A stretch of DNA of 64,000 nucleotides, taken from positions 25,048,001 through 25,112,000 of the forward strand of contig NC_047024.1 of the NCBI RefSeq assembly GCF_902652985.1. Direction: 5' to 3'. The first letter of the stretch is position 1. Each line of letters begins with the position of its first letter. The notes below the pieces were generated by a model. It had not been told where the DNA came from, did no database searches, and worked only from the letters and a program-made list of their open reading frames with translations. The stretch comes from Pecten maximus (Eukaryota). Made by a program: the position numbers and the translations under genes. Below, piece after piece: positions 250-64,000 of the stretch.

Positions 250-960
250 ACTTAAATTTTACACTTGGGAGAGGGGGCTTATTTGAGGTTAAATATCGTA
301 CTAAACATTTACACTTGGGGAGGGAGGGGGGGGGGGGGGGGGGGGTATTTGAGGATAGATACAGTACTAAACTTTTGACGCTAGGCTAGGTTATATTTGA
401 GGATAATTACAGTACTTCAAGTTTTACACTAGGGGAGGGGGCTTATTTGAGAGCAAATATGATACTACACACTTAAACAGAGGGAGGGGGTCAAATTTGA
501 GGATAAATGCAGCACTTAAGTTTTACAATAGGGGAAGGGGCTTATTTGAGGGTAAATATGGTACATGTACTAGGCATTTACAATGGGGGGGGGGGGGGGC
601 TTATTTGAGGGTAAATGTTGTACTTGGCATTTACAATGGGGGAGGGGGCTTATACAGCACTAAAGTTTTACATTAGGGGAGGGGGCTTATTTGAGGGTAA
701 ATATGGTACTAAACAATTACAATGGGGAGGGGGCTTATTTGAGGGTAAATATGGTACTAGACATTTACAATGGGGGAGGGGGCTTATTTGAGGGTAAATG
801 TGGTACTAAACAATTACAATGGGGGAGGGGGCTTATTTGAGTGTAAATATGATACTAGAGATATAAAATGGGGAGGGGAGGGGACTGATTTGAGGGTAAA
901 TATGGTACTAGACATTTACAATGGGGAGGGGAGGGGACTGATTTGAGGATAGATATGATA
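250..960. repeat. Degenerate tandem array, about 49-bp unit (GGGGAGGGGGCTTATTTGAGGGTAAATATGGTACTAGACATTTACAAT)
   Basis: The GGGCTTATTTGAG core recurs more than 10 times (for example near 439, 539, 683, 731, 779, 829). The reverse complement TACCATATTTACCCTCAAATAAGCCCC resembles a TA-flanked Tc1/mariner-type MITE terminus. Confidence 0.85.
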
Positions 961-1964
961 ACTATACATCATAAACAGTATATTTTTTTCTGTTAACTTT
1001 ACACACATACCTTGTCTGTTGAATGGCCATAATTGTGGATATAAAACCAGTTAAATGATTAAATAGATGTACAAATTCTTCTTAGTCATTATAAATGATC
1101 TATTATTACAGGTAACATGATTATTATATACAGTATAGGTGTTTACCTGTCACCAATAGGTACGGTGACGTTACTGTGATGGTACCAACTATAATCCCGT
1201 ACCTTGAGGTGTCTGTAATGTTTCCGATACTAGCTCTACCAATCAGCGTGTACACCAGGTAACCTCGGGGTCAGTTTTAGTGTTTATAATGGAGACACAA
1301 TAAAGTAACAAACAATTATATTGACCCTTGCTCACAATGACTGGGAGTTTCATTTATTTACACCAGATTTGCCATCTAACATGTGTTAGCTCTGGGTTTT
1401 TATCTTTAATTCTTAATCATGTTAATATTGGAAAAAAACATTGACCTGGCATTACTAGATGTATAAGAGGTAAAAGATGTTTATCAATATTTTTGAAATA
1501 TTGAATGTAAGATGCACATCTTTGTAATGTGAATAAAAAATATATATGGGGTTAACAAGTAGAGTCTGTCTAACTCTGGTAGTATTTCTGTGAAAAAAAA
1601 GTAATTTCAATGTTGATACTGTTTGATACTTTGTAAGTTAATGTTATGCATTAAGACATAGCATACAATTATTAAGTGACCTATGCTAACTGACCACCTC
1701 TGTAAAGTGACCACCTCTATTAAGAGACAACCACTCTTTATGACCACCTCTGTCATCCATTAACTGACTAACTTACAACATAAATTAACAGTAAGTTGAA
1801 GTTGGAGAGACATAATTGTTCTGTTTGACTATTGTAACATAACCATCTGTATGATTCAGATCTGTGAGCCAGACAGAATTGTCCAGTCCTAATATACATA
1901 GGGATGTCTAAGTCTGATGACCAGGAACTCTACGTCTGATGGCCAGGAACCTATTTAACAATAT

Positions 1965-4330
1965 TCTGACACACTGTGGGACACAGTATATTGGTAGATA
2001 AACCTGTCTTATCTGACACACTGTGGATACAGTATATTGGTAGATAAACCTGTCTTATCTGACACACTGTGGGACAAAGTATATTGGATGATTAACCTGT
2101 CTTATCTGACACACTGTGGGACACAGTATATTGATAGAATAACCTGTCTTATCTGACACGCTGTGGGATACAGTATATTGGTAGATAAACCTGTCTTATC
2201 TGACACACTGTGGGACACAGTATATTGATAGATTAACCTGTCTTATCTGACACACTGTGGGACACAGTATATTAGTAGATTAACCTGTCTTATTTGACAC
2301 ACTGTGGGACAAAGTATATTGGTAGATAAACCTGTCTTATCTGACACACTGTGGGACACAGTATATTGATAGATTAACCTGTCTTATCTGACACACTGTG
2401 GGATACAGTATATTGGTAGATAAACCTGTCTTATCTGACACACTGTGGGACACAGTATATTAGTAGATTAACCTGTCTTATCTGACACACTGTGGGACAC
2501 AGTATATTAGTAGATTAACCTGTCTAATCTGACACACTGTGGGACACAGTATATTGATAGATTAACCTGTCTTATCTAACACACTGTGGGACACAGTATA
2601 TTAGTAGATTAACCTGTCTTATCTGACACACTGTGGGACACAGTATACTGGTATATTAACCTGTCTAATCTGACACACTGTGGGACACAGTATATTGGTA
2701 GATTAACCTGTCTAATCTGACACACTGTGGGACACAGTATATTGGTAGATTAACCTGTCTTATCTGACACACTGTGGGACACAGTATATTGGTAGATTAA
2801 CCTGTCTAATCTGACACACTGTGGGACACAGTATATTGGTAGATTAACCTGTCTAATCTGACACACTGTGGGACACAGTATATTGATAGATTAACCTGTC
2901 TTGTCTGACACACTGTAGGACAAAGTATATCGATAGATTAACCTGTCTTATCTGACACACTGTGGGACACAGTTTATTGGTAGATTAACCTGTCTTATCT
3001 GACACACTGTGGGACACAGTATATTGGTAGATTAACCTGTCTTATCTGACACACTGTGGGACAAAGTATATCGATAGATTAACCTGTCTTATCTGACACA
3101 CTGTGTGACAAAGTATATTGGTAGATTAACCTGTCTTATCTGACACACTGTGGGACACAGTATATTGGTAGATTAACCTGTCTTATCTGACACACTGTGG
3201 GACACAGTATATTGGTAGATTAACCTGTCTTATCTGACACAGTACATTAGTAGATTAACCTGTCTTATCTGACACACTGTGGGAGACAGTATATTAGTAG
3301 ATTAACCTGTCTTATCTGACACTCTGTGGGACACAGTATATTGATAGATTAACCTGTCTTATCTGACACACTGTGGGACACAGTTTATTGGTAGATTAAC
3401 CTGTCTTATCTGACACACTGTGGGAAACAGTATATTAGTAGATTAACCTGTCTTATCTGACACACTGTGGGACACAGTATATTGGTAGATTAACCTGTCT
3501 TATCTGACACTCTGTGGGACACAGTATATTGATAGATTAACCTGTCTTATCTGACACACTGTGGGACACAGTATATTGGTAGAATAACCTGTCTTATCTG
3601 ACACACTGTGGGACACGGTATATTGGTAGATAAACCTGTCTTATCTGACACACTGTGGGACACAGTATATTGGTAGATTAACCTGTCTTGTCTGACACAC
3701 TGTGGGACACAGTATATTGGTAGATTAACCTGTCTAATCTGACACACTGTGGGACACAGTATATTAGTAGATTAACCTGTCTTATCTGACACACTGTGGG
3801 ACACAGTATATTGGTAGATTAACCTGTCTAATCTGACACACTGTGGGACACAGTATATTAGTAGATTAACCTGTCTAATCTGACACACTGTGGGACACAG
3901 TATATTAGTAGATTAACCTGTCTTATCTGACACACTGTGGGACACAGTATATTGGTAGATTAACCTGTCTAATCTGACACACTGTGGGACACAGTATATT
4001 GATAGATTAACCAGTCTTATCTGACACACTGTGGGACACAGTATATTGGTAGATTAACCTGTCTTATCTGACACACTGTGGGACACAGTATATTAGTAGA
4101 TTAACCTGTCTAATCTGACACACTGTGGGACACAGTATATTGGTAGATTAACCTGTCTTGTCTGACACACTGTAGGACAAAGTATATTGGTAGATTAACC
4201 TGTCTTATCTGACACACTGTGACAAACAGTATATTGTTAGATTTACCTGTCTTATCTGACAACCTGTTCGACACAGTGTATTAGTAGATTAACCTGTCTA
4301 ATCTGACACACTGTCGGACTCAGTATTTTT
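1965..4330. repeat. 47-bp minisatellite, about 50 copies (CTGACACACTGTGGGACACAGTATATTGGTAGATTAACCTGTCTTAT)
   Basis: Highly homogeneous tandem units are directly visible. The array degenerates out to about 4530. Confidence 0.97.
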
Positions 4331-14050: not shown

Positions 14051-14059
14051 TTGAAAGCG

Positions 14060-25988: not shown

Positions 25989-26368
25989 ACAAGAGGCCCA
26001 GGGGCTTTAACTGTTACCTGAGCTCTGATGTGTACATTGATAGATGATACTTTGCTTCGAAAGAAGGTCAAGGTCATTTATTTGAACAAACCTAGCATGG
26101 TACTTGCTTAATATCATGACCCTGTGCTTCTTAATTATTGAAAAGAAGTTGTTTAAAGATTTAAACACATTGGACACCTGTGACCTTGAAAGATCAAGGT
26201 CATTCATTTGCACAAACTATGTACGTGTAGCCCTTCATTCCAGCATGCTACCGGCCCAATATCATTATCATTGGCCTTCTGATTATTGAGAAATTATTAA
26301 TGGACAGATGACGGACAAAAGGCGATTGCAATAGGTATCTGGAGACTTTGACTGAGGTAACATAAAAA
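25989..26368 (+). mobile_element. Short degenerate Helentron-associated non-autonomous element (HINE/DINE-1-like)
   Basis: 5' ACAAGAGGCCCA..TTAAC.GT.ACCTGAG head, GAAGGTCAAGGTCATT core, GGACAGATGACGGAC microsatellite and a 3' hairpin followed by TAAAAA. Confidence 0.65.
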
Positions 26369-28032: not shown

Positions 28033-28059
28033 CAATACCATTCAATAAACATGAACAAA

Positions 28060-28478: not shown

Positions 28479-31400
28479 TCACACCATAATTTCTCTTGCG
28501 ACAATGCTCGCTTTCCTCTTCGTTGTTCTTGGGCCATCACACACATCTTGACTGTCGCAAACATCAAATTCGTGATTCTGTCATCAAAAGAATATAATAT
28601 ATTAATGTTATCACTCTTACTGTCTTTGATATTAACATTTGGCCAAAAACAGATAAACAATTGGACAGCAATCAGATCTAAGATTCATTGGACTCAATTT
28701 GTTGGCCTTAGCACTATCGAACTGGTGCTGTTTTTCTGAGAGAATGGAGGTACTACATGTTATTATAGTTGGCAATATATTGCAAGGTTGAAAATTTCCC
28801 TCATTTTCATATAGATTGGTTGTGCCTCCTGCAAAAAGTATTGCTAAAGAAATTTACATGTGTTTCTAATTAAAAATCCCAGACACACATAATTATATAT
28901 TTCTCTCATACTTCACAGGTCAATTTTTCCGTTTTTGGTAGGGAAAAGATAACACCTGTCTTTTACCAGGATAGGGAAGAGACAGCTCATATGCACTATG
29001 ACACCACTCACAATAATGTTACGTCATAATTGTAGTATGTAGAGTAACCACTTCACAAATTGATAACATCAATTTTGATGCACTTTTTCAAAGAAAATGA
29101 TGATAAGTGTGAAGAAAAGGTTTCACAAAACTTTTCAATTTTTTTTTTTTTTTTGAAAGAGTTTGAGTAAAAATAATCAAATATGGGCCTGTACCATGGA
29201 CAGGGATTTCTCTTACCCTGGACAGGGATATCCGCAGTTTTACTGGGGTGAGATTTTCTTATCACAGACATCACTATGACCTGACCCGGAACGTTTGAGT
29301 GTTAATATCAGTATTATTCAGAAATTAAAATAAGTATTAATTATCAGAGTTAACTGAGTGTTTGGTGTCCTTTTTGACAAGCTTATTGGAATTGTATTTT
29401 GTATGAAATTAACATTGTAAGGTGTAAAGCGTCTGCTGCAGTCTTATCACAACTGTCATCTGCCGTCCACGTGTTGTTGTTACATACGTTTGGATTTGGT
29501 TCACACTTGGAAAACAGGATAAGAGAAAAATAATCATTCACCCATTTTTAGGATGAGATAGGGGGGTCTCAAACCTCGGGGACAGATTGTTAAGTTCCCG
29601 AACACTCGACAAGCCTCGTGTTTGGGAATTTAACAATCTCCCCTCTCGGGTTGAGATCCCCCTATCTCACCCCAAAAGGGGTGAAAGATTCTATTAATCT
29701 TAACCCGGGGATATCTTAAGAGTTTGGCTAGTCAGCACTCCAGCCTCGTGCTGAGTATAGCCTCACTCTTGCACTCAGGTTGAGATATATCAGTCCACAG
29801 GACAGGTCATCTAAGATTATTTAAATCTCATTTTTTAAACATTTTACATTAAATAACATGACATCTCTTGTTAGATTAAGCGATTGAAAACATTAATGGT
29901 CAACCAACTGAGAAAACAGTGGATTATGTAGATGTTGAAAAGCAATCACAAAAGATACCTATCAATATTCTAATTTTGTCACGACATGTTAGTCACCTAA
30001 ATATCAGCACCCCATTTCAGCAATATTTAACACCAAATAATGGTTGCAGTGACCTATATTTTGTATACCATTAGGGTTTACCATTACACAAATCATGAAG
30101 ACCATATATGAAATACTAATGTAGTAGAGTAAATGCTCCAGAATAAGTTTTTGTCAAATCTAGGTCAAAGATCAAACTATATGCCACAGTGACCTACATC
30201 TACTCTGGTACCTCCAGGTAACTAGACATATGTATTCTTCTAAAAATATGGATATTTCAAATATGAAAACTCACTCCATCGACCTTTGAGATTGCCCTTT
30301 TCCTTCCTCTCTTTTTGGCTGATGGTGGTTTAAATTCCTCTTCCTCTTCATTCATTTTAGGGGATAGTCTAGGACTGTGTCTCACCTTGGTTAAAAATAT
30401 TCAGCAAAAGATGTGATGCAATTTAGGAAAATATATGAACACTGAACAGTAAAATGTCATTGCTTCATCAGCAAAATTTTCCCTTCATTTTTCTTAAAGT
30501 GCAATTAGCTTTTATTTGCAAAATTGGGAATCTTGCATCTAGAAATATCTGTCTTTTGCTGGTAAATTATACATGTATTGTGAATATAAATTACATTACT
30601 AAAAATCTTGATATCCAACAGATAGGATAACAAAGATTTTGATATCTACATCAAACCTATCTGCAGTCCTGTGTTTAACTCAAACTGTACCTTTTCAACA
30701 GGCGCTGCTGGTTTCTTCTTGTTCTTTTTCCCTTTCTTCTTTCTTGAAAGACTGATACCTTCTGCCATCTCAGTCAGCTGAGAAATCTATTCAAGTAAAT
30801 GATATGTTTGCACATTATTTAGATATTGCAAGTAACTATCTTAATGATATTGAGGGACATGGACTTGGTGTAGTGGTGTAAACTGAAGTATTCTGTCTTG
30901 GTGATCAGGTTATATCATGATTTTGATACCTCGATCAGGTCAGGACATGAGTCATAAAACTGACTTCCTTTGTCATTTGTGTTATTATGTTAATCATGCA
31001 AGATTTAACGTTATATGCATAACAACCATACATATAAAACAATATAAGCATTTACTGAATGTTCAGTTGCCCGAAGAACTAAATCTGATTTATATTTCCA
31101 AGAACGAAAGAACAATAGATGTAGATACCCTTCCGGCCCCTGATAAAATAAAGGAAACAGTGACCTTGACCCAAAACTCTGGAACTCGAAATTGTCTGAG
31201 ATATTCCGGTTCTTAATTTATCATGTGAAGTTTGATCAAAATCCTTCAAGAAATGAAGTTACTAGAGTGCTGACAATCGTTGGCGTTATGTACATCTGTA
31301 CATCGTACGTAAAAACAGACAGAGGGGAAACCTACAGTACTCCCGGTTTTACATGTAGGGCACTTATAACATACCGGTACATCTTCCTTAGATGTTGGCT

Positions 31401-34400
31401 GTGTCTCACTTTGTTGTTGTGGCTGACAATTTTTCTTCTTGAAGTACCTTGGTATACCTTCATTCAAAATCTTACTCTTTTCCACCATTTTTCCTAGTCT
31501 TTAATTAAAAATATTTTCTCAGTTTAACTAACACAAGTTATTGAAGTACATTTTGTATGTCTCTGTGTTTTATATCAACATTATGTATTAATTAAACAAA
31601 TACTTCTACAAAAGAAGAGACTATCAAGCCAAATTCAATTAAATTCATTGCATATAGAAGCTGAAATAGAACATTTTATGCTGTGATTTTTTTTAATGGG
31701 TGATTGGAATTATGTTGTAGACATATTTAGATTTTGTCATGTGGTTTTATCATGTATATTTTGAAAAAAATGGCAAGTATCAATTTAAAACTTCATCCCA
31801 AAACCTTAAACCATACCTTTTTCCTTTCCCTGCATTACGAATGAAGCCTTCTTTTTCCAACCTGTTCATGAGACCTTGAGCCACAGTCATCTCCACACCA
31901 AGCCTTCTGGCAAGATTAGGTCCAATCACCCTGTTCATCTCAGAGGTAGCCATCAAGGCCCTTCTCCACAGACAAGTAGCCTACATTCATAAACAAAATA
32001 TTGCAGTAAAACTGTTAATTTTTTTTAAAGGTTTTAATGAACATGTTTAAAATCACCATTGGAAGTACACCATTACTGTATTTTATTCTAATCTAGTGAA
32101 AAGACAGAATTTCAATTGAGATACATGTAGGTCAATTATTAAGAGTAGCAAAAATACCAACACGGCTGTTGTGACTAGAATATATGCATATAGTTCTTGT
32201 ATCTTGGGTACTTAAATGTTTTTTTTTTTTTTTTTTTTATATTTCTTTTATTTTCAAACATTTTACATGGTATACATAAATAGACATCAACAAACAATCA
32301 CTTGCACACTCGCACCCACAGCCTTCAAAAGATCATTGNNNNNNNNNNNNNNNNNNNNNNNNNNNNNNNNNNNNNNNNNNNNNNNNNNNNNNNNNNNNNN
32401 NNNNNNNNNNNNNNNNNNNNNNNNNNNNNNNNNNNNNNNNNNNNNNNNNNNNNNNNNNNNNNNNNNNNNNNNNNNNNNNNNNGATATACTTGCATATGTA
32501 GCATCATGACATAACATAGTACAACATAGCGTAAATAAACATAACATAAACAGGATTTTCCCTCATATTTTGTTATAAAAGGTCCTTTATAAATAAATCA
32601 AAAAAATCAAAAAAGTTTTCTGCATTCAAATGACAGATTTTAGAATTAACAGTACATCCTAAGGATGCAGAGTGCAGAGACGTTTAGTTTGGGAGGCCTT
32701 GATGGATTTTCTGCGTATAGCACGCATGAATCCAGTGTCAGGGAAGATCCTGCATACATAACATACATGTACATACATACACATATATATACACACACAC
32801 ACCTATACACACACACCCATCCTCACACACACCCTCACAGACAGAAAGGCAGAAGACACACTAAGGAAGACAGATAGGAAGGGAGAGAAAGGAAGAGAGA
32901 GGAGGAGGTACCATTTCTTAATTACATACATGTAATTATTGCATACATGCATGTACAAGAATATTGTAATACAATATGTATTAAGAGATAAAATACTGAT
33001 AAATCACTGGGCTAGTCAGCGATACAGACCACAACAGTCAGTGTTATGATATACAATAATAGAAGATAAGTAAAAGAAAAGTAAGTTACCTGTATTTATA
33101 TAATAATACAGTGTATATAAAAATAAGTTTAAGACCAGGGTAGGATGTGTAAAAGACTAATACAACTCATAGATCCAATAAAGGCTTCCACTTCCTCCAG
33201 CCTAAATCAAATTGTCTTTTACCATGGTCACTAAGACTGTTATACATATATTTTTGGACTACAAAATTATCTTTAATTACATTAATGAGAGCATTGATAT
33301 TCAAAGAATTGCTAAGACATCTGGTTTTATATATGTAATGTTTCATAATGATTAAAATTTCATTGTCAACAGAACTACAATTTTGTAAAACTATTCCAAA
33401 AAGAAATGAGTCTTTATTATATGCAAAAGGTATAAACAACAAATCTAACAAAGTTTCAAATTTATGAAGAAGAGTTTGCACCTCCTTGCATTCCCATAAG
33501 CAATGTATAATTGTCTCCCTTTCCATATTACATAAAGTACACATAGTTGGGTACTTAAATGTGGTGTGGAGAGTGATAGGCATGATGATTAATATTTCTT
33601 TGGTTTTTAAGCTACAATCTGCTTTATCAAGACTGTCAGTCTCACTGGGAAATCAGAGTTCCAGGGGAAACACTAACCCTCGACATGTAATTGACAAAAC
33701 TTTTAAATCATGGAAACAAATTCTAATCCCTGAACATGAACAGATGTGCAAATATAGAAAGTCCTAGATTTCCATAAATCTTGTAAAACTAATGTGAAAA
33801 AATGTGAAAGTTCATTCCTTTTAACACTAATGACTATAGTGTAAAATCTCTGAAGATTTGGTAGGGAATTTTAGGCATATGGACACAGATGAATATTCTA
33901 AGTAAAAAAAAAAAAAAAAAGATTTAACTTTTGTTAAGATATCTAACAAGACGTGCTTTTGTGATTGCAAGAATATTAAAAGAGAAAACGATGGATTCAG
34001 TATGAAATTTGATCTATCAAATCATGCACAGTGATTTCCTGAAATTCTGAAAGGTTACAAAAGATATATCACAATATGTATTATGTTGTGACCCTTGTAC
34101 CCTGATGTGTATTGTATTGTTAGTACCTCAGTGATATACAGCTCCAAGTATTGATAAATTGACTATGATTAATTAACATTTCTACCACAATACCCTGTGT
34201 TATTCAACTCTCAGACCATCAGTTAATCATTACAGCTGTTGATTAACAATCTGTTTATACCACACGTGGTATAAACTCTGTACGCATTTTGATTGGCTAA
34301 CATGGTGAACTTTGACCCAAGCTGCAATTGTTATTGACGTCATCAATAATCTAATGACGTCACATCACCGGGTCCTGGACATCACCGGTACACTTTATTT

Positions 34401-48245: not shown

Positions 48246-48727
48246 GATCTTGTTCTGGAATCTTAAATGCTTTGATTTTGGTTTTTTGTTTGTTAAATTG
48301 ATAAAATTATGACGATCTCGTGACTTCACACGCGTCTAAGAATGTAAATTGTAATATTTCCTTTAACATCACCACCACCACTTTGTAGCACTCGATACCA
48401 CCAGTGATTCTCAAGAAGTTTAAAATGTGTTTTACAAGATGGTGGCCGTCTTGGATTAAGGACCCACCCGAAAAATAAAAACACTTGGTCAGGACCATCT
48501 CAAGAAAGATCCTGTCGTGTTAATCGAAATCACGAAACTGAGCTTATTTGTAAAGAACAGCAACATCACCACCATGCTTCAGATACATCTTAGACCAGAC
48601 AGCTATTGTTGTCATATTCACATTACTTTGATTAGCATTGATATAATCGATACAACGATGTATATCGATCAATCGCATTATTTCCATAAAATGTTCAATC
48701 GAGATGAGTCGACGAATATTGTCTCAC

Positions 48728-49092
48728 CTGTCTTCTCTTTCTTCTTGAAATGCAGACGACAATATCCCACAATGCTTAATCACGGAACTGCGCGTGAAAA
48801 CAAATCCTTGGCATGAAAACGCTTGCTTATATCAAAAACCGATAGGCTCTCCTTGATTAACCAACAAAATGATTTAATAAAAATCTGTCATATCGTTGTT
48901 CACGTGTTGTTGTTTTTAATTTTGAATATCGCGCGGTTTCAACGTTCATCCAACGTAAGCTTTGAAAACATAACATCTCAAGCGCTTTAAAGACTCGGAA
49001 CCAGAGGATTTCGATGACTTGCGCAGAGCTGTTGCTAGCAACAACAACTAACACATCCGGTAGAGAGGATTTTTGACTTGCTCGAGTAAACG
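48728..49092. promoter_or_regulatory. Probable bidirectional promoter HORMAD(-)/ROPN1L(+) with the two non-coding first exons; RFX X-box at 49031-49042
   Basis: Divergent strong donors CAG|GTGAGA (minus, 48728) and ACG|GTGAGT (plus, 49092), local CpG enrichment, palindromic GTTGCTAGCAAC, TCACGTG at 48900 and TTTGAA at 48921/48961. Confidence 0.65.
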
Positions 49093-50272
49093 GTGAGTTT
49101 TATAATCGAAAAAAATGTGTGAAATTTAAACGAATGTAATAGAAACGTATATACATTTTGTTAAAGAGTTATTAAGTCGATTAATGATTTGAAAAGCACT
49201 GTTTACGAAGGAAAATGAAACACGAAAAGTTAGAAAACCCCTGACACAGAAGTGGCTACTGTCACTGTGTACATCAGACATATCGAATGTTAGATTCATT
49301 TTAAATCATATCTTCGAAATCCATTGTAAAACATCACATCATTAACCAACTATACAACGGAAAATTCATGCCATTATCATGTAATCATTAATTTTAAATA
49401 TGTAAAGATGCAACCTACATGTACTTTATTTGATGTAAAGTCCAACATAATATATGCAGGACATTTGGGGCTGATTATGGACCAAATTCCCAGCTAAAAT
49501 GATTTATTATTGAAGCCAACTTCCACAATATTACAGTTTATTCCTGAAAAATACAAATTCACCAATTTTCTTCCCCAAATCAGGCAAATAGCCCCAATCT
49601 TAAATCGAGAGAAAAAAGCCCTACATACATGTACAGTAATAATGTACAATATTATATGTATTACCATTTAGGAGATTTGTTCAGGCCCTGTTAAACTATT
49701 ATAACCATAGCCTCATGGATCAGTTACTATGTATATATGTATTCTCAATTTGAACTAGCACAATTTGATATTTTAATTGCTTAATCTATTACAAGGGCTC
49801 CAAATTTGCCCGTCAAATTTCCTTTTCAGAACGTATTAGATAATTTTAAACCACATGTATTCCATTGCAATAGCTATAGTAGCTGTTCCTCTGTTTACCA
49901 GTCATTAGTAAGCTATTACTTATTTAATTGTTGGGTCTTTCTGTTATTTTTCATTCATAAAATAATATCTAAGGATTTGGCTTGTGTGTACAGTACAGTA
50001 ATACATGCAGGTGATAAAAACTTTTTTTTAAATGTATATTACATTTTTGACATACTTATAACCTTATACCCAGGTCATTTACATTACCTTAAGTATAAAT
50101 TTTGATATGATTGGCATGAATTCATTAAATGACAAATAATCAGTATAAATAATCCTGTGAAAAAAAAGGAAAAAAATAATACAATTCTTACCAAACTTGT
50201 CAGCTAATACATTTTGATGTTGTAATATATTTATAATAACAATTTTTATTTCTCCATAGCCAAACAGCAAGC

Positions 50273-53200
50273 ATGCCTTCCAATCCCGATGAACCCTACT
50301 ACTGCTCACAACAAATTAATATCCCTCCATCTCTACCTGATATTCTCAAGCAGTTCACCAAGGCAGCCATTCGCACACAGCCCAAGGATGTCCTTGCTTG
50401 GTCAGCAGCGTAAGTACAAACACAATTTTTCATTGTAACAAATCTACATTTCTGTGACTATAGATATCAGTAGTAAGTGTAATGATACCCCCCAGACAAA
50501 GTCAGGGGGTATACTGGAATCACAGGGGCTCCATTTTGGGATTTTGAGTAACATATGACATATCATAACAACCACAACACAATAAATTCAGCATTCATAT
50601 ACGTTCTGAAACCTTGTAAAAATCAGGGTTATCCAGGTGTATTAGTCGATAAACCCAATTTTTATAAGGTTGCAGAATGTATATGAATACTGAATTTATA
50701 GTGTTGTGGTTGTTAACTGATGTCATATGTATTTCTCAAAGTCCTGAAACAGAGCCCCTGTGACCGGAATTAGGTTATATGTCTCTGTTCATCTGTCCAT
50801 GATACGATTTTGTCAGTGTCTAACATCTGGTATTTAGTTTTTATCCTAACTTTTAGAAAATTTGAATTCACTGATGTAGTCAGCATCCAAAGATATTGAG
50901 TGCCTGCACTTGAATCAGTAATTTTTATGGCAGTTATGCCCCTTTTCCTATGTTTGAAGACGGTTATAATCTTGTCTGGACAAAATTTCTGTGTAGTCAG
51001 CACACATACTCTCAAGTTGTGCACCTCTGCTTGCTGATTTGTTGTGCTATTTTACCCCTTTTTATCATAATTAACAAGTGATTGGGGCAGAGTGGAAATC
51101 AGGGTAGATTGGGAAGCAGGTGCTAAGTCAGCCATCATAGTGACAGTTCAAGTTTCTTACTTGATTTTTTTTGGGATAGACTTCCTCATTCCTGATAGTT
51201 TTGAATTTAAACAATAATTCAGTAAATTGTTTCATGTCTATTTCCCTCTTTCTTGCAGTTATTTCAGGGCCATGTCTAAAGGAGAAACTCCTCCTGTAAA
51301 AGAACGCCTTGAAATGCCAGTGGCCACACAAAAGACAGATACTGGTTTGACGCCGGGTCTTCTCAGAGTTTTGAACAAACAGGTGAAGAAAGAATTCAAG
51401 AAAATCAACTGAAGCAATAGGAAAGCTGTAGGAAAGCTATAGTGTTACTGACTTAACAGTATTTATCAAGAAATTATAGCACTGAAAATATAGGTAGTGT
51501 AGAGTTGGGGAATCAGAAACTCACTACATGTATTTACAAGGTCTGATAAAGCACATAAAGAAGCACACCTAAAAAAAATCAACAAAAAGATTGTCATATT
51601 AAGATAAATGTTGCATTTTTATTGCATTCTGGACAAATTAACAGATGAATTTGGAAGTCAGGTCCACAAAGTTTACCCATCATTCCTGCTTTGATTTAGT
51701 ATTATTTCTGTAATCTGTGAAAGCTATTACATTATGTATACTTTTTACCTGAAAAAAAACCAACAGTGTATGCCTGCTTAAATCAGAAAGATATATATAG
51801 TAATATTTTCTGTAACATTGGGAAGACATTATGACATTTTTCTTCATTTTGGGAAAATAACTCATTTTTTAGCTAGGGGAGGCACCTGTTACTTAGGGCT
51901 CTGTTCTCAACTGTAAAACAGGACAAAAATATCACTCCGACCTAAGGACCTGTAGACAAAATAGTTTACAATAGGTTATTAGATTTACTGTATCAAATTT
52001 GTTCTCGCAAGACAGTGTTTTCTTTTTTGACAGCTGGGACCCAAGAAGACAGTCCCTCTGAGTGTGGTGGAAGAAAAATGGCAAGATGTAGCACTCCCTA
52101 AGGAACAGTTCGATGAGATTGTTAGAATCGGTAGCTTTGGTGGCGATGTGGAATGGAACAAATTCTTCACACTTGCTTGTTCAGCATTAGGGGAGGTAAC
52201 TGATTAACTAGTCTTATTATTCTTTTATCATTGATTTGCAAAGATGGTGTTGTACTCATGTGTATGTATAAGTGATTATGAGTAATGATACATATTTATG
52301 AAGACACTAGTGATTATGAGTAATGATGCATATTTATGAAGACACTAGTGGACCAGTTATATGAAGACCTATCAGGATCAACTGGGTTCCAACCAATTAT
52401 CCTTTCTTATTTGATATATAACTTTTTTTTAGCTTTTTAATGTACTCAGTTTTTTAGCCAATTTTATTAAGATAATAATTCATTTTTTTACATATCTGAT
52501 GTATTTCAGAACTTGACAGATGCAATGAAGCTTGTGTGTGAGATCCTCACAGCAGATCCTGAGGGTGGCCCTGCCCGGATACCTTTCCCCCTATTTAAAG
52601 AGTTATACACATACCTTGCACAGATAGATGGCGACATTTCACAGGGTCACATAGATGATGCTCTCTCCAACCTCAAATACGATGTGTAAGTCATCATGTC
52701 TAAGGATTTTATATTTAGGATATCTATGTGGGCAGCCACTCAGCTGGTTAGTTTTATAATCAAATTTATTGTGGTGTAAATAATCAAAAATAGTCAAACA
52801 ACACCAGGTAAATGAAATTTTTATTTATAATCAATTCAATTTAATGCATGATAATAATGACATAAGTAATTTGTTGGTAATGCATATATATACAAACATA
52901 CATATTGGTTCAATGCAATAGTATATTAAAGTAGAGTATTAGATTATACTGCGTGTGGATGCAAGCCCACTCTTCTCAGTTCTAATGACTTTTACCAATA
53001 GACAAATTCTTTGTATAATCTAAAATTTATCAGCTGACAAAATGGCAATAACATTTCCTTTTAAATGAATGTTATATTTATTTGACCACATTCTAGTTGA
53101 GTTCGAAGTCATGCTCAAAGAATCTAAACTTAGTATATCATTCTCTCGGATTGAAGTCGCTAATGCTATTTAAGCATTGATATCATTTTTTTTTAGTTTC

Positions 53201-53839
53201 ATTGGGGTATGAAAAAAAATGTATTTGCAATGGATTCTTACAAAATTTTGTAAACAAATTTTTTTTCATACCCCTATGAAACTAAAAAATAATTGACATC
53301 AACGCTTATAATTAATTTTTGAAATTGATTTTCAAAATTAAATCTTGTTTTATGTACAAACTGAACTGATCTTATAAGGGTTTCTTTTTCACAAATCAAT
53401 ACCCAATGTCAATGGCTGTCTTGTGACGTCACATATTTTGTGCCATTTTCGGATTTTTTTCATAGAGGTATGAAAAAATCAGAATGCCGCATTCTGCCTA
53501 CAAACAATGGACAATTAATTATATATACATTGTATATGGTTCCAGTTGATATTTTTGCTTCAATATATGCCAGGCTAAATTTGAGAGGAGTGTTATGATA
53601 TGGCATTGTCTGTCTTACATTGGTTTAAATTTATCAATTGACTTTTGTCAATGTCTCAATCAAGTTAGATGATTGCCAGAGGAGCTTTTTTCTATTATTA
53701 GTATAATTGCATAGAGAGAAATTAAGATTTATCAATTCTCTTACTTTCTTTTTACAGGGAAAAGCAAGATGGATACATCCAGCCTAGAAATTTCCTTAGC
53801 CCAGAAGGACCAAAGTTATCAATGCCAACCTCATCCTAG
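50273..53839 (+). CDS. ROPN1L: Ropporin-1-like protein (RIIa docking/dimerization domain; AKAP-associated, radial spoke RSP11 homolog), 226 aa, 5 coding exons
   Basis: Exons 50273-50409, 51259-51382, 52034-52195, 52510-52685 and 53758-53839 (681 nt, phases consistent). Motifs [52 protein letters not shown] and CEILTADPEGGPARIPF. Confidence 0.97.
50520..50763. mobile_element. Fold-back MITE (imperfect palindrome of about 240 bp) nested in an older repeat in a ROPN1L intron
   Basis: TCACAGGGGCTC / GAGCCCCTGTGA ends. The arms ACATATGACAT..ACAACCACAACAC.ATAAATTCAG.ATTCATATAC pair across the whole element. Confidence 0.8.
53168..53480. mobile_element. Palindromic non-autonomous DNA element in the last ROPN1L intron
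   Basis: TTTAGTTTCAT.GGGGTATGAAAAAAA / TTTTTTTCATACCCC.ATGAAACTAAA, plus a distal TTTTTCATAGAGGTATGAAAAA. Confidence 0.7.
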
Positions 53840-56589
53840 GGTTAAAACTTTTGTATAACTCTCTGAACGTATCAAATCACTACCTGGAACATCATTCTAC
53901 ATTAAAATCTGCCACATATACATTGATAGAGGACCGCTACAGCAACATTATCATTGTACCGAACTGAAACCAGTCAAACCAAAATGTGGCTGTGCATGAA
54001 ACCTACAGTGCTGAATAGTTAATGTGCTTGTTGTTTCTGTTCCCTTAAATCCTGCTGAATTTTTCATTAGACTGAAAGAACTTTATATGTATAATCTAAT
54101 GAGAGCAGAACAATGCTTGTTAGTGAAATTATTGTTCATAATGCAAAACTAAATTTAATATTTTGATAAAACAACTTGTCATTATCTGAAGTCTGCAAAT
54201 GATAATTTTGTTTTATTATTTATTATCATTTATGTATATATTCCTTTAGGTAAAAGAAATAATTTTGTTTTTGTTACTATAATGATTAGTTACATCCTTA
54301 AGGAAAAGGACAATATTTTCAGATAATACAAATATTTTTCTTGATTATCTTTCAATTATTCCAGTGATATGTAATTTTATTTTTACACTCCTCAAGATTG
54401 GAAGCATTTAAAATTTTCAATCAAGTTCTTGAAAAAATAAATGTTTAACCTTCTCACAATATAGAAGTTGTTTAAGAAGCTCCCATACACTTAAGAGTTT
54501 ATCCTATATCCCAGTCATAACTATTTCATCAATACTGTTGAGTATACATATTGTATTTTAGAGTATATAATAGTTGAATGCCTTAAATGACTTAACTTAT
54601 ATTTCAAATTATATTTCAGAATTTCTGTCTCACTGCTGAAAAAGTTCAGGTTCTCAGATTAAACTGTTCTAAATATTCCTTTTTTTATCAGATATTTATA
54701 TTATAGAAATCGAAAGCTGATAGAAAGGATTTAATATATTTTCATGCAATAATTATTCTTAAACTCAAGGTTTTCACTTGTTCTGTACATGTCTGTATTA
54801 AATTTATGATGATGTAATTAAACCTTCTAATGAGATCATCTTTGTTTTTATCTTATTTATTTTATCAGCTTGTATAATTATTTTTCTTTAAATAACTTTT
54901 CTGAATAACGAAGAGGCCCAGGATCATATTTTTTGTGAGTAATATACTGGGATAATTGAATGATGAAATGTTTGTTCAAATGAATACCTTGACAAACTTT
55001 CAAGGTCATTAGATTAAAATTTGTTAAAATCTTTAAAAATTCTTTTGAATAACTCTAAAAGGCCTTGGTTTGTTTTATTAGGTCAGTGATGTGCTAAAAA
55101 TAAAGGTTATCATGTTTGTCAAGGTCACAGTGGAGAAAGAAATTGAAATTCCAATAACCATACATACTGGAATGTGCTGGCCAATCTTTGAACATAGTCT
55201 TTATTCATAATATGTAGGATGATAACATCGTCTGGGACTGATCCTGATGAGTTCGATAAAAATCATAAAAGGTCAGCAGCAAGTGAACTATACAGACCCA
55301 TTGGACCACTTGTGAAACCAAACTGGCAGTCTTGAATTTGGTCTTGGAGTATTTTCTATCTAATCTAATCTAGTAGCCAATTGGCTGCTTAGAAAACTTC
55401 AAAGTATGTATTCAAGGGAGATAACTTACGCAAATCTAAAATAAATACATGTAAAATTGTAAACACCATATTGATGAATCGAGGCGAGTTTTCTATATCA
55501 TACCCTTTTATAGACATTTTATAAGGAAGGCATGGTGTAGTTCCATCCACCCTTTCCAGATTTCATCACTATGTCAATGAATTTCAGTTTTTATCAAACT
55601 GTAGGAATATACATTTCTGGGTGCTAAAATCACGCGGATACTTAACTGTTTTTGGTTTCATAATTCTGGAGTTTATGAATATATATCCCCACTGACTTTA
55701 ATTCAACTTATACTGTGTACAAAATGTAAGTACGAGGGTACATGTACCTTTGACAAGCCCGTGTCTCGTTATCAAGAGGGCAATGCCGCATGGTCAAATC
55801 CAGGTCAAGAATTTTCGTATTTTATATATTAAGTATTATAAAATGTATAAGTCTAGGTGGGATCTGACTATGGCTTTACTTATTGATGTTAAAATCTCAA
55901 CTATTGCAATTTAATAACACAACAAAGGCAAAGTCAATTTCAAAGGACTATATTGAAACTCTGTTGTTACGATTTACTTTATTGTCTTTCACATTTATGC
56001 TACCTGGAACAGGTAAACCAGGAGAGGATAGTCTACACATAGTAAATACGCTCTACTACATTTGTATAAGTATAACACGCAATCATGATTATATTGCGTG
56101 TTAATGTCAAATCAATATTTGTATTGGTAAACTTTTGCGTATCTTGTGTCTGGGTCGTATGAAACATCCCGATCGACGCGGGAAATGACGTACATTATAC
56201 ATTACACTGTATGTATTTATAACCACATTTGATATTATAACATAATATATGTATAATTACAGGATTAAGTTCCACAACATAAAAACAGGTTTTACAATAC
56301 AAGTCACAAGATTGAGCACACAAAGCGAAAGTTTTACAACATGAATTGATACCAATCGCATTTTTTACGTAACCTTATATCACGGCAAAACATAAGATCC
56401 AAGTTTTACATGCCATAGTCTAATTATATACAAGTACAAATAATGTTTGATTTCATGAACAGATGATACTTTACACATTCGAGTATGTCTGTATTAGCGA
56501 TAGATTTTAATTAATAACTATTACTCTAGAAACTGTAACAGCAAGCATTATATTTCCTGCACACATATGGCATTATTCTACGTACTACC

Positions 56590-56694
56590 CGAAAAATGGC
56601 GGGTGATTAACACACGTTGACGTCATATTGATATCATGACGTCACAAATTCTTTGGTCGGTTCCGCGTTGAAGGCGACATCAAAATGGCGGCGG
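56590..56694 (+). promoter_or_regulatory. Proximal promoter with two full CRE palindromes and two YY1-like AAAATGGCGG motifs
   Basis: TGACGTCA at 56618-56625 and 56637-56644. AAAATGGCGG at about 56593 and overlapping the ATG at 56682-56691. Confidence 0.55.
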
Positions 56695-59600
56695 AAACTG
56701 TGGACTTCGATTCTTCCTTCGATAACGAACATAGGGAAGATGAAATAGATCGAATGGTTGGCGATGTTTTGGATGACTCGTTCGAAGAAATTCCAGAGGC
56801 AACGGACGAATTTTGGAAGCCTGTCATAAGCACAAGTACAAATATGAGCAGACAACATACTGTTGACATTCCCAAAGAATTGTCATTGGACTCGGAGAAT
56901 GGTGGGAAACACTGTGAGTATCCACTCCCGGTTCATTCTGGAATTGATAATAACTGTAGCTGTTTTGACGAAGGAGTCCAATTATTACGACGTTCTAGAA
57001 GCGAAGACATTCTTTGCAAGAACCAGGAAGGCACTCAACCAGCATATTATGAATCCTTTCCTATGCACCAGAACTATATGACAACGCCAGATAAGGAGTC
57101 AAACCTTGCGGATTCATTACACTCGGTTGAACTTGATGACAATATACCAAATGACAATTTTTTGTTAGGCGATAAAGGATTTAAAAGTTTCTTTGACGAA
57201 TATGATAAGAAACTTGATTGTCTTGAAACAAAACACACTGCTATTGATGACTCTTTCAGTGGTATGCAGTCAATTTTAATGGAATTTGAGAACTTTGTGT
57301 CATTCATCGAACATCAGTACGAAAGTTTTGGAAATACCGATACATGTACGAGAGAAGCCGGCCCCTGTGTAGATGACGCTACTGTAGAAATTGAAAGCAA
57401 GATAACGGAAAGTGATACCGATAAATCGCAAGAAGAAGAAATCTGTAATGCTGATGTAAAACAGGCGCCTATTGAGAAAGATTGTGTTCATATAGATATT
57501 GACAGAGATGACTTTGACAAATACAAGCAAGAAACCGACATTGACAAGTGTGTCAATACCTCCGACAGGGAATATATTTCTGCTGAAAATGATGATAAAA
57601 CTACTGAGGAAACAGAAGACAATGTCACACATTCAGACAAACAAAAAGAAGAATCAGCCCAGGAACATGTTGGTGAAGTGGAGAAAAAAGAATGTAACGA
57701 AGAAGGACAAAAGGAAAAGACAGAATGTGACGAGTACTTGCAGGAACATGATTATGAGGACAATACCAAATGTAATCTGGCTGTGGATATGCGGTCGTTT
57801 TTGGTGTGTTTGAATTCAACACTGCAGGATATGTTCTCCCGATTCCAGGAATTTGTAAATGAAGTTGGAGGTAAAAAGATATTGGCGTTTATCAAATTTA
57901 TATATCTAATCAAATAAAATGTCCCGACAGGTGTTATAGAAATAAAATTAAATTGCCATGACATCGTCATTATTCATACTCTTACCAAAATATCATCAAA
58001 ATGATGTTGTGAAAATTCATGTAGTATATAACCTTTTGAATTTTCGTGTTTAAACGGCAACGGAAACATATAAAAATAAACTTGATACCAGTATCATTCA
58101 ACGTTCAATTTTTTTTAAATCAGTTTATCAACAAATTCAGGATAATTCTTTGAATAAAACGTTTGAATGGTAAGTCTAGAATATGTCGCAGAGTTATAGA
58201 TTGTGCATATAATGAATCGGTGATATCAATGACTCTATAAGTGATATCACTAATTAATTACGGGGATATCACGTGATCGTTTCATTGGTATTGATCACTT
58301 AAATTGAATGAAAAGTGAAATGGCGCCTAGTTGGTTAAATCCTGCATGTTTTAAAAAGCTGTTACAGAAAAAAAGTTAATGCGAATTATTTACATTATTC
58401 GTTCAATTATGATACTTTATTGAATCCTGGTAAAATATCAATAGAGAGTTGTGGAATTATAATAAACCGAAAACCAACGGATCGAATCACTACAGCCCTA
58501 AATTTTTGCCTGGAGTTATCGTTCTTTACGGTAACTCGAATAGTTGGTAACTTACTCCCAACCCACCCCCAGCAAACCCCGGGCTCCTCATGTGCCCCAT
58601 GTGCATACAATGTTGACGTAGCCTATGATATTGTAGTCGCAAGGTTAATAATTATTAATGTGACCTCAATTCATTCAGCGTAGCTGAGAGGGATCTAAAT
58701 TGAATGACGTCACGTCAACAAATTATTGAAGTAACCTTAACATTGTTATTTTAAAACTGCGTTCAGAATTCTGTCATCATCATTGACTCTTCTCGTCCTA
58801 CCCGTCACGTCTAAACCGTTCCCAGAATGACGTGGGTCTGGGGATACAGAAATATATTATGATACGTAAAGTGACGTCATAATATGAAACATTTAATATC
58901 CAGTCCATCATTTCATGTGGCTGATATTGAGGGTTTTGGGGTGATGTTAGATATCTCGACAAAAACACGGCAATCCTTACGAAGTTGGTGCTGAATAGCG
59001 ATTGACAATAATAAAGAGTCGTTCTTAGAATAAGGGTCAAATACAACACGATGTTTAAACGATTTTGTGAGGCCACAAGATTACTTCTTTTTTATGTTTC
59101 GTCTACTTAATTTCGGATTGATTCAAACCAACAAAAGATATAAAATATAATCAGTATAATAATATTGCCTAAGTTTTAAGTTTTAATTTTGAATCGCAAT
59201 TTGAAAAAAAAAATCGACATTACAGAAGCAAAATCGATAATCGTGAAAAGTTGTAATCAATGTTTCGGATTTTTGATACCTGTAGGTCAATGATTATAGG
59301 TTAACATCCAGCAGAACAAACTTAGTTGTTAAACATCTTTTTAAACGCAGCTCTTTTTATTGTAAAAAGTATTTTTAAAATGTACAAAAAATAAAAAATT
59401 CTAAGCTGATTTTTCTGTATATAGCGGAATATTTAAGGAACAATTCGGCCACGAAGATCAAATTCATTACCAATTTTGAAAATTGAATGCTTTAATCTTT
59501 GTTTTCAATGCAGAAACCGTTCACTTGGGAGCCTTAGCAACTCAACACTCACAACGAATGGATTCATGGGCATCCCACGTGCAGCGTCTCTACAACTCAC

Positions 59601-62600
59601 TGAAAACTGACCACAACAATATGCAGGTCAGAAAACAAATGTAAAGGGTTATCCCCTTGATCCTTCATTCTTTGGGCTCCAGTTTACAGAAGCTAAAAAA
59701 ACTTCCTCAGCTAAGATTCTTTTCCATAAATCCAACAATACGTTCTTATATATTTTTTATTAACAATATGAAAATTTAGAATTACTGGTCTTTCAAATGA
59801 AAATTTAAAAAAAAAATGAAAGAAAATGTTTCTGAATTGCTTTATTAACCGTGTAAACGTATGTTTGATTACCAGGAATACATAGAACAGAAGGAGAAGG
59901 ATTGGATCAAAGTTAGGAGTCAGTTACATTCTGAATTGGAGACCCAGGGCCGCCAGGTACACGAGGTCATCACCGCCCTCAAACAGCACGAGGACGTCCG
60001 GCGGAAGAGTGAACGCATTCTGAGCAAGAGAGGTAGGTATGCTTGTTTATTTGCTGTGTTTATCACAGGGTCATTTTGAGGCGGGGTCTCCTTGTAGTAG
60101 TTGGCGACTAGCTCATTGATTAATAGCGGGAGGCCCGTGGCATGCCATCAAGAGCAATTATGGTAAAGTGTCTTGCCCAAGGACACAACCACGACAGCAT
60201 AAACCGGACCGTTTCTCAGCTTTCCGAGAAACACAAACTGACACGGGTAGGGAGCTTCGAACCACGCACCTCGGATCTTTAGCCGGGGTTACGTGGTCGG
60301 CACTCTAACTGATTGAGCTACTGTGGCCGAAAGCAAGGGAGGTAATATGGACTAAGTCACATGGTCCAAGGTTTGGGGAATAGGGCAAGTGGTCATACAC
60401 AGGGACTTGTCACGAATTTCCATACCACGGTCCATACATGTACTATATTGTAATATAATGTATGTTAATGTAAGAAACAAAGGAAAATTTCTTGAGCACG
60501 AATTATTCGTTAAGAAACCTTAACATAGGTTCGTTTTTCAAATTTTGTCTCATATTCAAATGTTATGTCACTGGTCAGAAAGTCATGCCCAAGTTTCTCA
60601 ATTCTTAAGTTATTAGTGGTTGTAAATTTGTGATGTGCCTTAATTGCCACTGTACTATTTCATTTCTTGCTCATGCGGGAGCCGTGTAGTGACATTATTT
60701 ATTGAATGACCTGAGTATAAAGTACTGTAATTCCACGATACCAGTGAGTGTAGAGTGTAGAGATCCTTTACAACGCTAACTTCGGCTGATTCCGGTACTC
60801 TGATGTACATCGTAGGCACGGACTTCGCCGAGATGTGACGAATGTGACTCAATACTAAATACATGTAGGATATGCCTAATTATCGCAGGATCCAATTAAG
60901 AATCGGGATTAGATTTGTTACTTGATTGTTTTCTTAAGACAATGGTTGAAAGGATGTTAAACCACTTAAATTACAGCTTATTGTCATATAGGTACATTTG
61001 AGAAAGAACCACAGGAATAAGGGAATGATTCGTGCACTGTGGCACTTGTTAAACTTAAAAAGAAAAAAAGAAAATCATGCGGCATAACGTGAAGAAGGAA
61101 AAGTCATTACTACCTATATTCATATCTTTATAAAAAATAATACTAAATCCACAAGTGTACTGAATGTTCAGATATTCATCACGTGATCATGAGGTTATGT
61201 TCCTCCACGAAAGACACGAGGAAGATTCTTTTTATATTTTGTTTATTTCACTTATGTCACTTTAGTTAAGTAAGTACTGACGTCGCTGATCTACCTGAAG
61301 TGGAACGGTTTCTATGACTATCGCAAATACAGTAGCAACTACAACTCAAAATAGCATTATCCGGTTCCACGCAGTATGCTGATCAATATCGTGGTAAATG
61401 TTACTCTCTCGCTAATGTAAAGATTTAATTAGACTAATAACACGACAAATGTTTAATTTTTGTTACACGAATATGTTACACATATACTTTTTTTCAACAT
61501 CATTGCCTAAATGGCTGTTTTTGTGTTTGTTTAAACACAGGCGTCTGCTTCTAGTTAATACAAGTAAGAAAAAAAAATAGCCCATACTCCTCCTATATCA
61601 ACAAGGTTGCTATAATAGGGAGTAGGGGCTAACATTTTTTTTCTATAAATATTAACCAGAAACAGACGCCTGTGGTTTAAACGTCCTCACCACAGCCAGG
61701 GTCATATAAGGAGGAGGTAGGACTGGCTGTCATTTCTTGACTAATTGCTATAGATGCTTTCTTACGAATGATTTTTCTTAATTAAAAAAATAATTAATAA
61801 AAAAAAGAGTAAATATAAAACAGTCCTTAGCCAATAATTTTCAAGATTTTAAAAGATGTTTTTTCTTAAATAATTTACAAAATTCGCCATTGATACCTGT
61901 TTATAAAACCTAAAATCCATCCCTTATCTTAACAAGATAACATAACTCTACACAATATTTTAATACAATAGGTAGGCGATTTTCTTTTTTTGAAAAGGGG
62001 TAACTTTTAATTAACAAAAACTGCGTCATCATAATGCTTGGTTGATAAAGGATATAAATAAAGACTGAACACAAGCGCTGGAAAGGCTTGAATTCTACAT
62101 CAGCTATATAACAACAGCCCCATACGTAAATACCAGTCAATGAATCATTCAACGGAACGATACAAAGACCACTCACACGAAGACACTGTGTAAACATTGA
62201 CGTTAATTGCATGTTCTTTATCCTGATAACATCACTGTAACAAAAATAGTAAAAAAGCGCTGTATAAGTTGTCTACCAGGAAAGATCAAGGGATATATGT
62301 ATATATATATTTGCTCTATCTTATTCTTAATCTGTGTCGTTAGTGTTTCGGCCCTCCAGGATCGAGTGTGGTTTACCGACGTTTTTTTGTTGGGGTCACT
62401 GAAGAAACCCATGAATAAGGATGCGACTTAAAAAAAATGCAGGATGCGACTTAAAAATGCACCCCCCTCCTAACCCCTAACCCCCCTCCCAGGAAGAATC
62501 GATGATTTCTTCTCTTCTCCTTGAATTCTTCTCAGGGGACAAAGCGGAGATCGCAACTGACCTGCAGCTACTCCCATGCTCCCAATACCACAATGGATAT

Positions 62601-62983
62601 CTCTTTGGCTTTTCCTTTCTTTCTTTTCTTCTATTTCTTCCCGGGTTTTGTTTGTTATAATTTGATGGAGTCTCACTGGTCGCCCGTCTTTATTCACGCA
62701 TTGAACTGCTGTTAATTGGAAGCTATGAATGCCAGCTAGACAAATGCAAATTTAATGAAGCGCGCTAGCTGCAGTATAAATTCAAATATAAAACCACGAA
62801 ACAAACATACGTTTTGCCACTAAGCTAAAAGTTATCATTTTTGCAGTTGGTGATAGACTTCTCCGAAAGTCCGAACTCGTTAAAACCCTGGACAAGGTAG
62901 ACAATAATTTGGTGGATATTCTTCAGAAAAGGCGATGTGACCAGGAACATGCGATGGCACTTGATTTCTCCAGACAGCTGAAG
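56685..62983 (+). CDS. Unidentified protein with an acidic, probably disordered N-terminus followed by predicted coiled coil; 3'-incomplete
   Basis: Phase-consistent exons 56685-57870, 59514-59626 (ETVHLGALATQHSQRMDSWASHVQRLYNSLKTDHNNMQ), 59876-60032 (EYIEQKEKDWIKVRSQLHSELE...) and 62847-62983 (GDRLLRKSELVKTLDKVDNNLVDILQKRR...). No stop is reached within the window. Confidence 0.8.
60075..60330 (-). mobile_element. tRNA-derived SINE with a conserved central domain (GTGTCCTTGGGCAAGACACTT)
   Basis: The minus strand has an A-box TAGCTCAATCAGTTAGAGTG, a B-box-like GGTTCGAAGCTCC and the CORE-like CCTTGGGCAAG motif. Confidence 0.75.
61536..61673. mobile_element. Palindromic MITE (same family as 24787-24921)
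   Basis: CACAGGCGTCTGCTTCTAG ... CCAGAAACAGACGCCTGTG. Confidence 0.8.
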
Positions 62984-64000
62984 GTAAATAGCCAGATATA
63001 TCTCACGACGAGTCTCACCTCATCATATATACACCTCTCAAGATGAGTCTCGCAATATGTAAATCTAAAATGAGGTATATATTATGTTCTATATATAGCT
63101 CGAGTTGGGTGTCTCGAGGTTATACTCTATAAACGAAGTAGGTTGGGGTTGTCGTTACTTGGATTAACCTGTTTGTCCGGAAGTTTAAGGGGGAATTGTC
63201 CTGACAAACAGGTTGATTACTTGTGGCCGATTCCAATGCTATGTTATACATATCAAAACTTTACCCTGGAATTGTGCATCTGGACACATTTCTGTCATTC
63301 GGGCCCTTTTTATTGGACTTATGACCAATCATTGACATTCCTTGTCCAAATATTTACAGAAAGTTTAAACATATATAGGTAAACTAGAATGACCTGTCGC
63401 GTTGACCTTTTTGTGGAATATTCAAAGTGGGTAGTTCCATGATTGCACAGGTGTGTTAACAAAATATATTGATACGGAATACTACTGTGTCCAGCAGGGT
63501 GCTGTTTTGGACCATCCGTTTTTGTTACAATTTTATATTGACAATACAGGGATTGTATCATTTACTTTTGATGCATGGGTAACACATATTCAAGTAACTA
63601 TGTGATCAATTGTTCACATCTTAACAGTTTTGCCGCTAAATCTAGACCAGTATAAATACAAATGATGCAGCTGATGATATGGTTTGTTACATTATAAAAA
63701 AAACTAACATATATACATGTATATATACAAAGCACCTATTTCCCCTAAATGACTATAGACTCGTCTGTAATCAACACGACAGGTCATTCTGAACGGACTA
63801 TACCATGTAATGTTGATATATTGTGTGTTAAATTTTCATGATTGAATTGATATAAATAAATCTATGTCTTATGGTGAAAACAGGCTCATCAAAAAGAATG
63901 TAATAATTTCATTCGGAACCCGAATTTGATTAATCTTTGAACCTTTATTAAAAAATAACTATTTTGTGGTCAATTCTTCCTAAACTACTGCATTTATTTC

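Follow-up and report, generated by a model that had tools for sequence, protein, structure and literature searches.

Dispersed TACATGTA words in the genome of the scallop Pecten maximus as probable excision footprints of Tc1- and pogo-type transposons

When transposons of the Tc1/mariner group are excised, cleavage falls inside their ends, and footprints arise as end joining repairs the resulting 3' overhangs (PMC8151067). In the available excerpts of the literature, the overhangs of Tc1 are given as two nucleotides long and non-complementary (PMC4490562), and taCATGta is described as a Tc1 footprint of Caenorhabditis elegans that is rare among varied germline products (PMC3520976, citing Eide and Anderson 1988; PMC4490562). 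The subject of this study is the identical word, TACATGTA, in a 64,000-nucleotide stretch of Pecten maximus DNA (NC_047024.1, positions 25,048,001 to 25,112,000; the whole stretch is called the window) and in the genome of this scallop, where, unlike in C. elegans, it is not rare but present in some 207,000 copies. As with Tc1, the word consists of both 2-nucleotide CA overhangs kept between duplicated TA. Most of the copies are very probably germline-fixed excision footprints of Tc1- or pogo-type DNA transposons, and the six extra letters at TA are seen directly when sister copies of repeats are compared. The footprint itself is textbook knowledge; its scale and uniformity are new. No paper on its mass accumulation was found in open-access full text (supplements lay outside the search), and the analysis adds whole-genome counts, a controlled test on paralogous copies, and intact candidate families.

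Other described systems, as far as the excerpts of the respective papers go, share parts of this picture. Sleeping Beauty and ZB resemble the scallop sites in duplicating TA, in leaving terminal bases through end joining, and in having A at position -3 (PMC8151067, PMC7913693). However, the Sleeping Beauty footprint comprises three bases (CAG), and ZB leaves zero to three bases and prefers ATATATAT, whereas TACAGTA is little enriched in the scallop (1.4-1.5-fold at Markov orders 2-4) and 2 of 64 families of paralogous copies show it as a gain at TA. Passer, a member of the pogo superfamily (DD35D), has the target AAGTACTT, which matches the A-N-G-[TA]-C-N-T part of the flanks of the scallop scars, and leaves footprints of 0-4 bp (PMC9976928). 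Among the scallop ends sampled, there was no Passer-like family with G at -1. None of the other candidate footprint words tested in the scallop comes close to TACATGTA.

The initial annotation of the window had reported an octamer enriched about 10-fold, with at least 22 dispersed copies where 2-3 were expected. All 22 coordinates carry the exact word, and a 23rd copy lies at 57341. One hundred dinucleotide shuffles gave 2.35 +/- 1.48 copies per window (largest 7) and reached 23 in no case, while Markov models of orders 0-4 fitted on the window predict 2.3, 2.3, 2.7, 2.8, and 4.75 copies; the enrichment is explained neither by a di- or trinucleotide model nor by the higher orders. Two details of the earlier description did not survive: site 562 lies within a tandem array, so the copies are not all non-tandem, and site 57341 falls in exon 56691-57868 of a spliced contig, although the copies had been placed outside the called exons. 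Genome-wide, there are 207,406 copies in 918 Mb, or one per 4.4 kb, against one per 2.8 kb in the window. The proposed frequency of a scar every 3 kb or so overstates independent events, since background copies and passengers are included. Words of the same letters are less common genome-wide (TACTAGTA, 26,179; ATGATCAT, 32,714), which makes TACATGTA some six to eight times commoner. The reversed word ATGTACAT occurs in 101,423 copies genome-wide; it appears to be a poor control, because it overlaps with scars that have G at the flank or CAT after them.

A genome sample of 120 ten-kb stretches, with coordinates spaced by hand and two stretches adjoining the window, gives the same result. Here, 220 of 235 TACATGTA sites lie outside tandem repeats, and the ratio of observed to expected copies is 6.9, 6.5, 5.0, 4.2, and 3.1 at orders 0-4. 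At orders 3 and 4 the word ranks first among 8-mers once the four homopolymers are set aside, and at order 2 it stands behind TATATATA. Its clustering among the sampled loci is mild (chi-squared 145, 117 degrees of freedom). The next enriched non-simple palindrome is TGACGTCA (128 copies against 21-33 expected), which we take to be a CRE-type word. The excess of TACATGTA over background is estimated at 160,000-180,000 words, background making up about a fifth to a seventh of the copies. This excess includes copies multiplied within repeats, so that independent events are fewer.

The origin of the word can be followed in paralogous repeat copies, which were compared within the sampled DNA of one assembly. 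Both flanks were found elsewhere for 65 of 354 TACATGTA sites, giving 30 informative families. In 11 of these, the majority state is a 2-bp site (commonest TA in nine, CA in one, and TG in one); the other 19 comprise one family with the 2-bp site as the minority state, 13 in which the word is common to the copies, three with same-length substitutions, and two with other lengths. In a control set of other TA-NNNN-TA words (1,500 sampled sites, of which 492 were informative), 5 of 256 families have the 2-bp site as the majority state, which differs from 11 of 30 with p = 8e-9, and for other TAC-NN-GTA words the count is 3 of 49 families (two TACTAGTA, one TACGTGTA). The change is thus a net 6-bp gain at TA with the TA duplicated. 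In an enlarged sample of 2.0 Mb, the 2-bp site is the majority state in 16 of 52 families, with one locus (L300) doubtful. At L124, L145, L173, and window site 562, TA is found in several or even many copies, so that the change can be polarised as a gain. Among the polarised insertions of an unbiased list, 19 events have six bases, and five of these are TACATGTA; the list also gave TACAATGTA, TACATTTGTA, TACAAAATGTA, and a longer form rich in T, each located at TA. This list supersedes a first indel catalogue, which was unpolarised and swamped by repeats. The 6-bp differences between TA and TACATGTA, which the initial annotation had proposed to seek in haplotypes and sister species, are in clear excess between paralogous copies.

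Two sites of the window show the gain. At 562..569, one ~49-bp unit of a tandem array has gained six bases at TA, giving TACATGTA; sister units read AAATATGG-TA-CTA, and of 10 spanning alignments the three printed all have the 6-bp gap. At 26222..26229, TACGTGTA, a scar with one substitution, is a 6-bp gain at TA in an outlying copy of the 145-bp satellite unit, where the paralogous alignments read TA 45 times, GA 11 times, and CA once. Site 26222 had been absent from the list of the initial annotation.

The flanks of the empty sites are unrelated, so that the letters CATG come from outside and not from nearby DNA. This lack of a local template is one of several difficulties for mutation bias, that is, decay from (TA)n by two transitions, deamination of CpG palindromes, or fold-back copying, as the source of the words. 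Decay from (TA)n or from CpG words does not work, the product being commoner than its intermediates: the one-step word TACATATA has 230 copies against 440 of the two-step word, TGTATACA stands at 0.7-0.8 of expectation at orders 2-4, and TACGCGTA is rare (4). Other CATG palindromes reach 0.7-1.0 of expectation at orders 2-3, with the exception of TGCATGCA (1.3-1.5), and the density of the word is uncorrelated with CpG depletion (rho -0.05, p 0.57). Mutation bias draws support from the enrichment of TATATATA, from the 3 of 30 families with same-length substitutions, and from window site 31350..31357. The latter carries no insertion: its word is related to CACCGGTA, has the same length, and belongs to an old family of repeats. 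Of 19 paralogous loci, those extending to this place have eight letters there without any 6-bp gap, and this copy arose by substitution. Taken together, a mutational origin for most copies is very unlikely. It is largely refuted as the main source and accounts for the background fraction. The coding site at 57341..57348, with codons around D-T-C-T in the spliced contig 56691-57868 of organism B (0 gaps), probably also belongs to the background; no gap of two residues is seen at this place in homologue P0001 (44% identity).

A further mark of the probable footprints is their flanks, which read A-N-R-[TA]-Y-N-T, like a Tc1/pogo target. In the 120 stretches, A stands at -3 in 0.53 of the scar flanks against 0.35 at any TA, and a purine stands at -1 in 0.73 against 0.55. 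The pairing of G before the scar with C after it is enriched 3.2-fold. TACATG followed by another base has no such flank signal. In the window, the flanks of all 23 sites match the genome-wide scar profile (A at -3 in 24 of 46, purine at -1 in 33 of 46). Longer forms behave similarly. TACATTGTA and TACATTTGTA are enriched 2.5-fold and 3.0-fold, both carry the flank signal, and 3 of 14 and 3 of 5 of their families, respectively, show a gain at TA; genome-wide, the two strands together contain 99,036 copies of TACATTGTA and 40,603 of its reversal. The variant one letter longer than the scar has the same flank profile, and the T-run variants TACA-Tn-GTA are insertions at TA too. Double scars, TACATGTACATGTA, reach 12 both-strand counts against 0.07 expected. 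The filler TA is enriched (24 against 9.7) and the filler AT is not (6 against 8.0); the excess of the TA filler fits T addition at both ends, and the three-base overhangs of CAT-ended elements could give this word too. Inner one-mismatch words have A at -3 in 0.383 of flanks (0.357 in the background, 0.533 at intact words) and no signal at -1. Because they carry so little flank signal, the average decay of scars is put, as a rough inference, at ~0-10% per base. TACTAGTA is not enriched genome-wide, but A stands at -3 in 0.52 of its flanks, and two families show it as a gain at TA; it is probably a rarer scar, left by CT-ended families.

The same observations bear on the proposal that TACATGTA is a selected protein-binding site, of the Irx homeodomain or Myb type, which was spread and kept for regulation. 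Excerpts of published work report the word as an Irx-preferred site (PMC3520976) and as a Phytophthora promoter motif (PMC11134190), and wherever contigs of other individuals covered a site, the word was present. Nevertheless, the word originates in one exact length gain and not in substitutions, it occurs as a new insertion inside satellites rather than at conserved positions gained by substitution, the longer T-run variants have a like origin and like flanks, and the one-mismatch words show little flank signal. Regulation as the main cause is therefore scarcely credible, and the conserved binding site against which the initial annotation had weighed its proposal of Tc1/mariner scars (TA+CA+TG+TA) is not borne out, while the exact 6-bp gains and the new insertions in satellites back that proposal.

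A possible course of scar formation by excision comprises several steps. First, insertion of an element with CA...TG ends duplicates the target TA, as resident elements display. By analogy with Tc1, and in view of the T-run variants, the transposase would then cleave the element two bases from either end, so that each flank keeps a 3' CA overhang. In the subsequent end joining, a Pol mu-like polymerase may copy across the unpaired overhangs, with both kept, to give TA-CA-TG-TA; stuttering, with repeated T addition opposite the terminal A, would give TACA-Tn-GTA. Templated joining of non-complementary overhangs, poorer beyond two bases, is described for Pol mu in the excerpted report (PMC2396419). 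A half-scar may in turn be a good target, which would lead to the stacks that are observed, sometimes beside resident elements; scar-like letters adjoin resident elements at L099 and L243, and at 0 of 88 ends in a stricter set. Finally, scars would drift to fixation and be copied further inside repeats, where passengers are indeed found.

Candidate source elements are plentiful. Protein-family matches in the genome include at least 150 DDE_3, at least 151 DDE_1, and at least 150 Tc3-type HTH domains. A DD34E Tc1 group has open frames of 349 and 362 residues and ends TA-CAGAGA, other Tc1 and pogo families end TA-CAG...CTG-TA, and a 1.2-kb non-autonomous family has 1,247 exact 25-letter ends. 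The letters inserted at scars equal the terminal bases of these resident TA-flanked elements, and the elements of the form TA-CA...TG-TA that had been predicted are abundant in the genome, some with open transposase frames. At 88 resident ends, taken from 44 complete CAG-ended elements in 2.0 Mb, A stands at -3 in 64, as at scars. Empty-site paralogues were found for 8 of the 44 complete elements; these have 2 bp in most cases, TA in seven, and never a scar. In the L006 family (L006:4288-5499; 1.2-kb, pogo-like, and non-autonomous), most copies contain an internal TACATGTA; because a minority reads plain TA, a scar was evidently gained inside a master copy of this family and then amplified. 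L054, considered as a candidate with CATG ends that could give the word via microhomology, was rejected: its copies are alike beyond the TA, so that TACATG is internal. A very young high-copy Tc1 family (L102-L121) has a 355-residue frame and ATA directly outside its TA-CTGAAACG ends in nearly all copies, which leaves its true end and target ambiguous.

Several observations weigh against excision of such residents as the origin of most words. The -1 base at the 88 ends is A 41, C 30, G 13, and T 4 times, while scars have A 0.44, G 0.29, and C 0.10; the sampled ends thus fit the scars in part at this position and do not point to the main source family. The word was found at a paralogue in 0 of the 44 complete elements, and a CAG-ended element at a paralogue in 0 of 52 scar families, although a sample of paralogues from 2.0 Mb of one assembly has little power here. 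One or two clean CA-ended elements were present in 1.26 Mb of unselected DNA against ~220 words in 1.2 Mb, the element search being one that finds short, well-kept copies inside 10-kb pieces alone. The most abundant young Tc1 family, with the 355-residue frame, ends CT or TACT and cannot give TACATGTA. In the paralogue test, 5 of the 11 positive families have a single paralogue, so that insertion and deletion are unpolarised there, and other CATG palindromes have a 2-bp majority in 2 of 30 control families, in alignments that were uninspected. To these come the rarity of the word and the variety of germline repair products in the C. elegans excerpts, the substitution origin of site 31350, and the passengers and the lack of polymorphism described below.

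Some of these points would suit a related source, namely a transposase-related event that leaves no lasting insertion, such as an integration that is aborted or soon reversed, or a single hyperactive element that is lost or unsampled, with residents contributing little. Such an origin, which differs from excision of residents in the source alone, is improbable. It would account for scars ~hundredfold above residents in the sample, for the mismatched -1 base of the sampled families, and for the want of any filled/scar pair among 44 elements and 52 scar families. On the other hand, many CAG-ended families are present, the preference for A at -3 is common to them and the scars, and the resident search was limited to short, well-kept elements in 10-kb pieces.

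Within the window, some copies have been carried along in repeats. A retroposon-like insertion of ~1.3 kb at 32204..33546 (minus strand) lies in an intron and carries sites 32764 and 32927; it has a poly-A tail, and a direct repeat of 15 bp occurs at either end. It is polymorphic, since 32203 is followed directly by 33547 in contig 10 of run X5; a contig of depth 473 crosses 32927 without a gap. At 63714..63721, the word is inherited within a high-copy dispersed repeat: 16 of 26 paralogous alignments have the identical word, and most others a substituted 8-mer. Sites 32927 and 63714 are thus passengers, and not every copy of the word is a scar. For the other 17 copies (4899, 6914, 17613, 18462, 22261, 24481, 30570, 32122, 39550, 40592, 49416, 49626, 51525, 55446, 55739, 60435, and 60860), the sampled DNA contained no usable spanning paralogue. 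Site 49626 had one poor alignment, most of its listed paralogues stopping just before the site, and a DNA search with 55600-55900 matched the window alone.

Presence/absence polymorphism of scars was not seen among the listed contig matches of other individuals. In 28000-36800, these list no 6-bp gap at 30570, 31350, or 32122. In 48500-64000, long pieces cover 49416, 49626, and 51525 (run X5) as well as 57341 and 60860 (run X4), and their gap letters are too few to allow a 6-bp loss. Run X1 may be the assembled individual. Since no 6-bp loss is listed where contigs of other individuals bridge the sites, the scars look fixed.

Excisions are normally invisible, and the turnover of DNA transposons is judged from surviving copies alone. 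A uniform, countable scar makes the excision rate, the target choice, and the germline repair pathway measurable from genome alignments. It is also a warning for motif finders, as the leading 8-mer of such genomes, homopolymers aside, is likely to be a scar and not a regulatory site. A broader picture may be offered tentatively, with somewhat more doubt than confidence: marine invertebrates including scallops might repair germline transposon breaks by near-deterministic, loss-free end joining, so that each visit leaves a 6-bp tag. The excess words would then form a ledger of past jumps, ~hundred times the surviving elements, written largely by an unnamed pogo-like element with the target A-N-G-TA-C-N-T, and the scars would seed further targets and add ~1 Mb of DNA.

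The window also contains several genes. A single-exon 7tm_1 receptor has its closest named relatives in Argopecten, Ylistrum, and Mizuhopecten (81-84% identity). A spliced multi-exon gene on the minus strand (~28059-36136), whose translation has a Cys/His-rich finger, presumably resembles HORMA/Hop1-type meiotic proteins. A spliced gene on the plus strand (49091-54809), supported by contigs of other runs, is taken to resemble ropporin-1-like; Pfam gave no family for its exon at 50261. A further spliced gene, with an acidic open reading frame of 425 residues at 56640-57917 and exons to ~62983, has one homologue found, at 44% identity, and Pfam gave no family for the 56640 frame. Finally, positions 63401-63900 have a 100% identical copy 8.2 kb downstream (L022, G000:C10:25119693-25120093), which is either a recent tandem duplication or an assembly duplicate.

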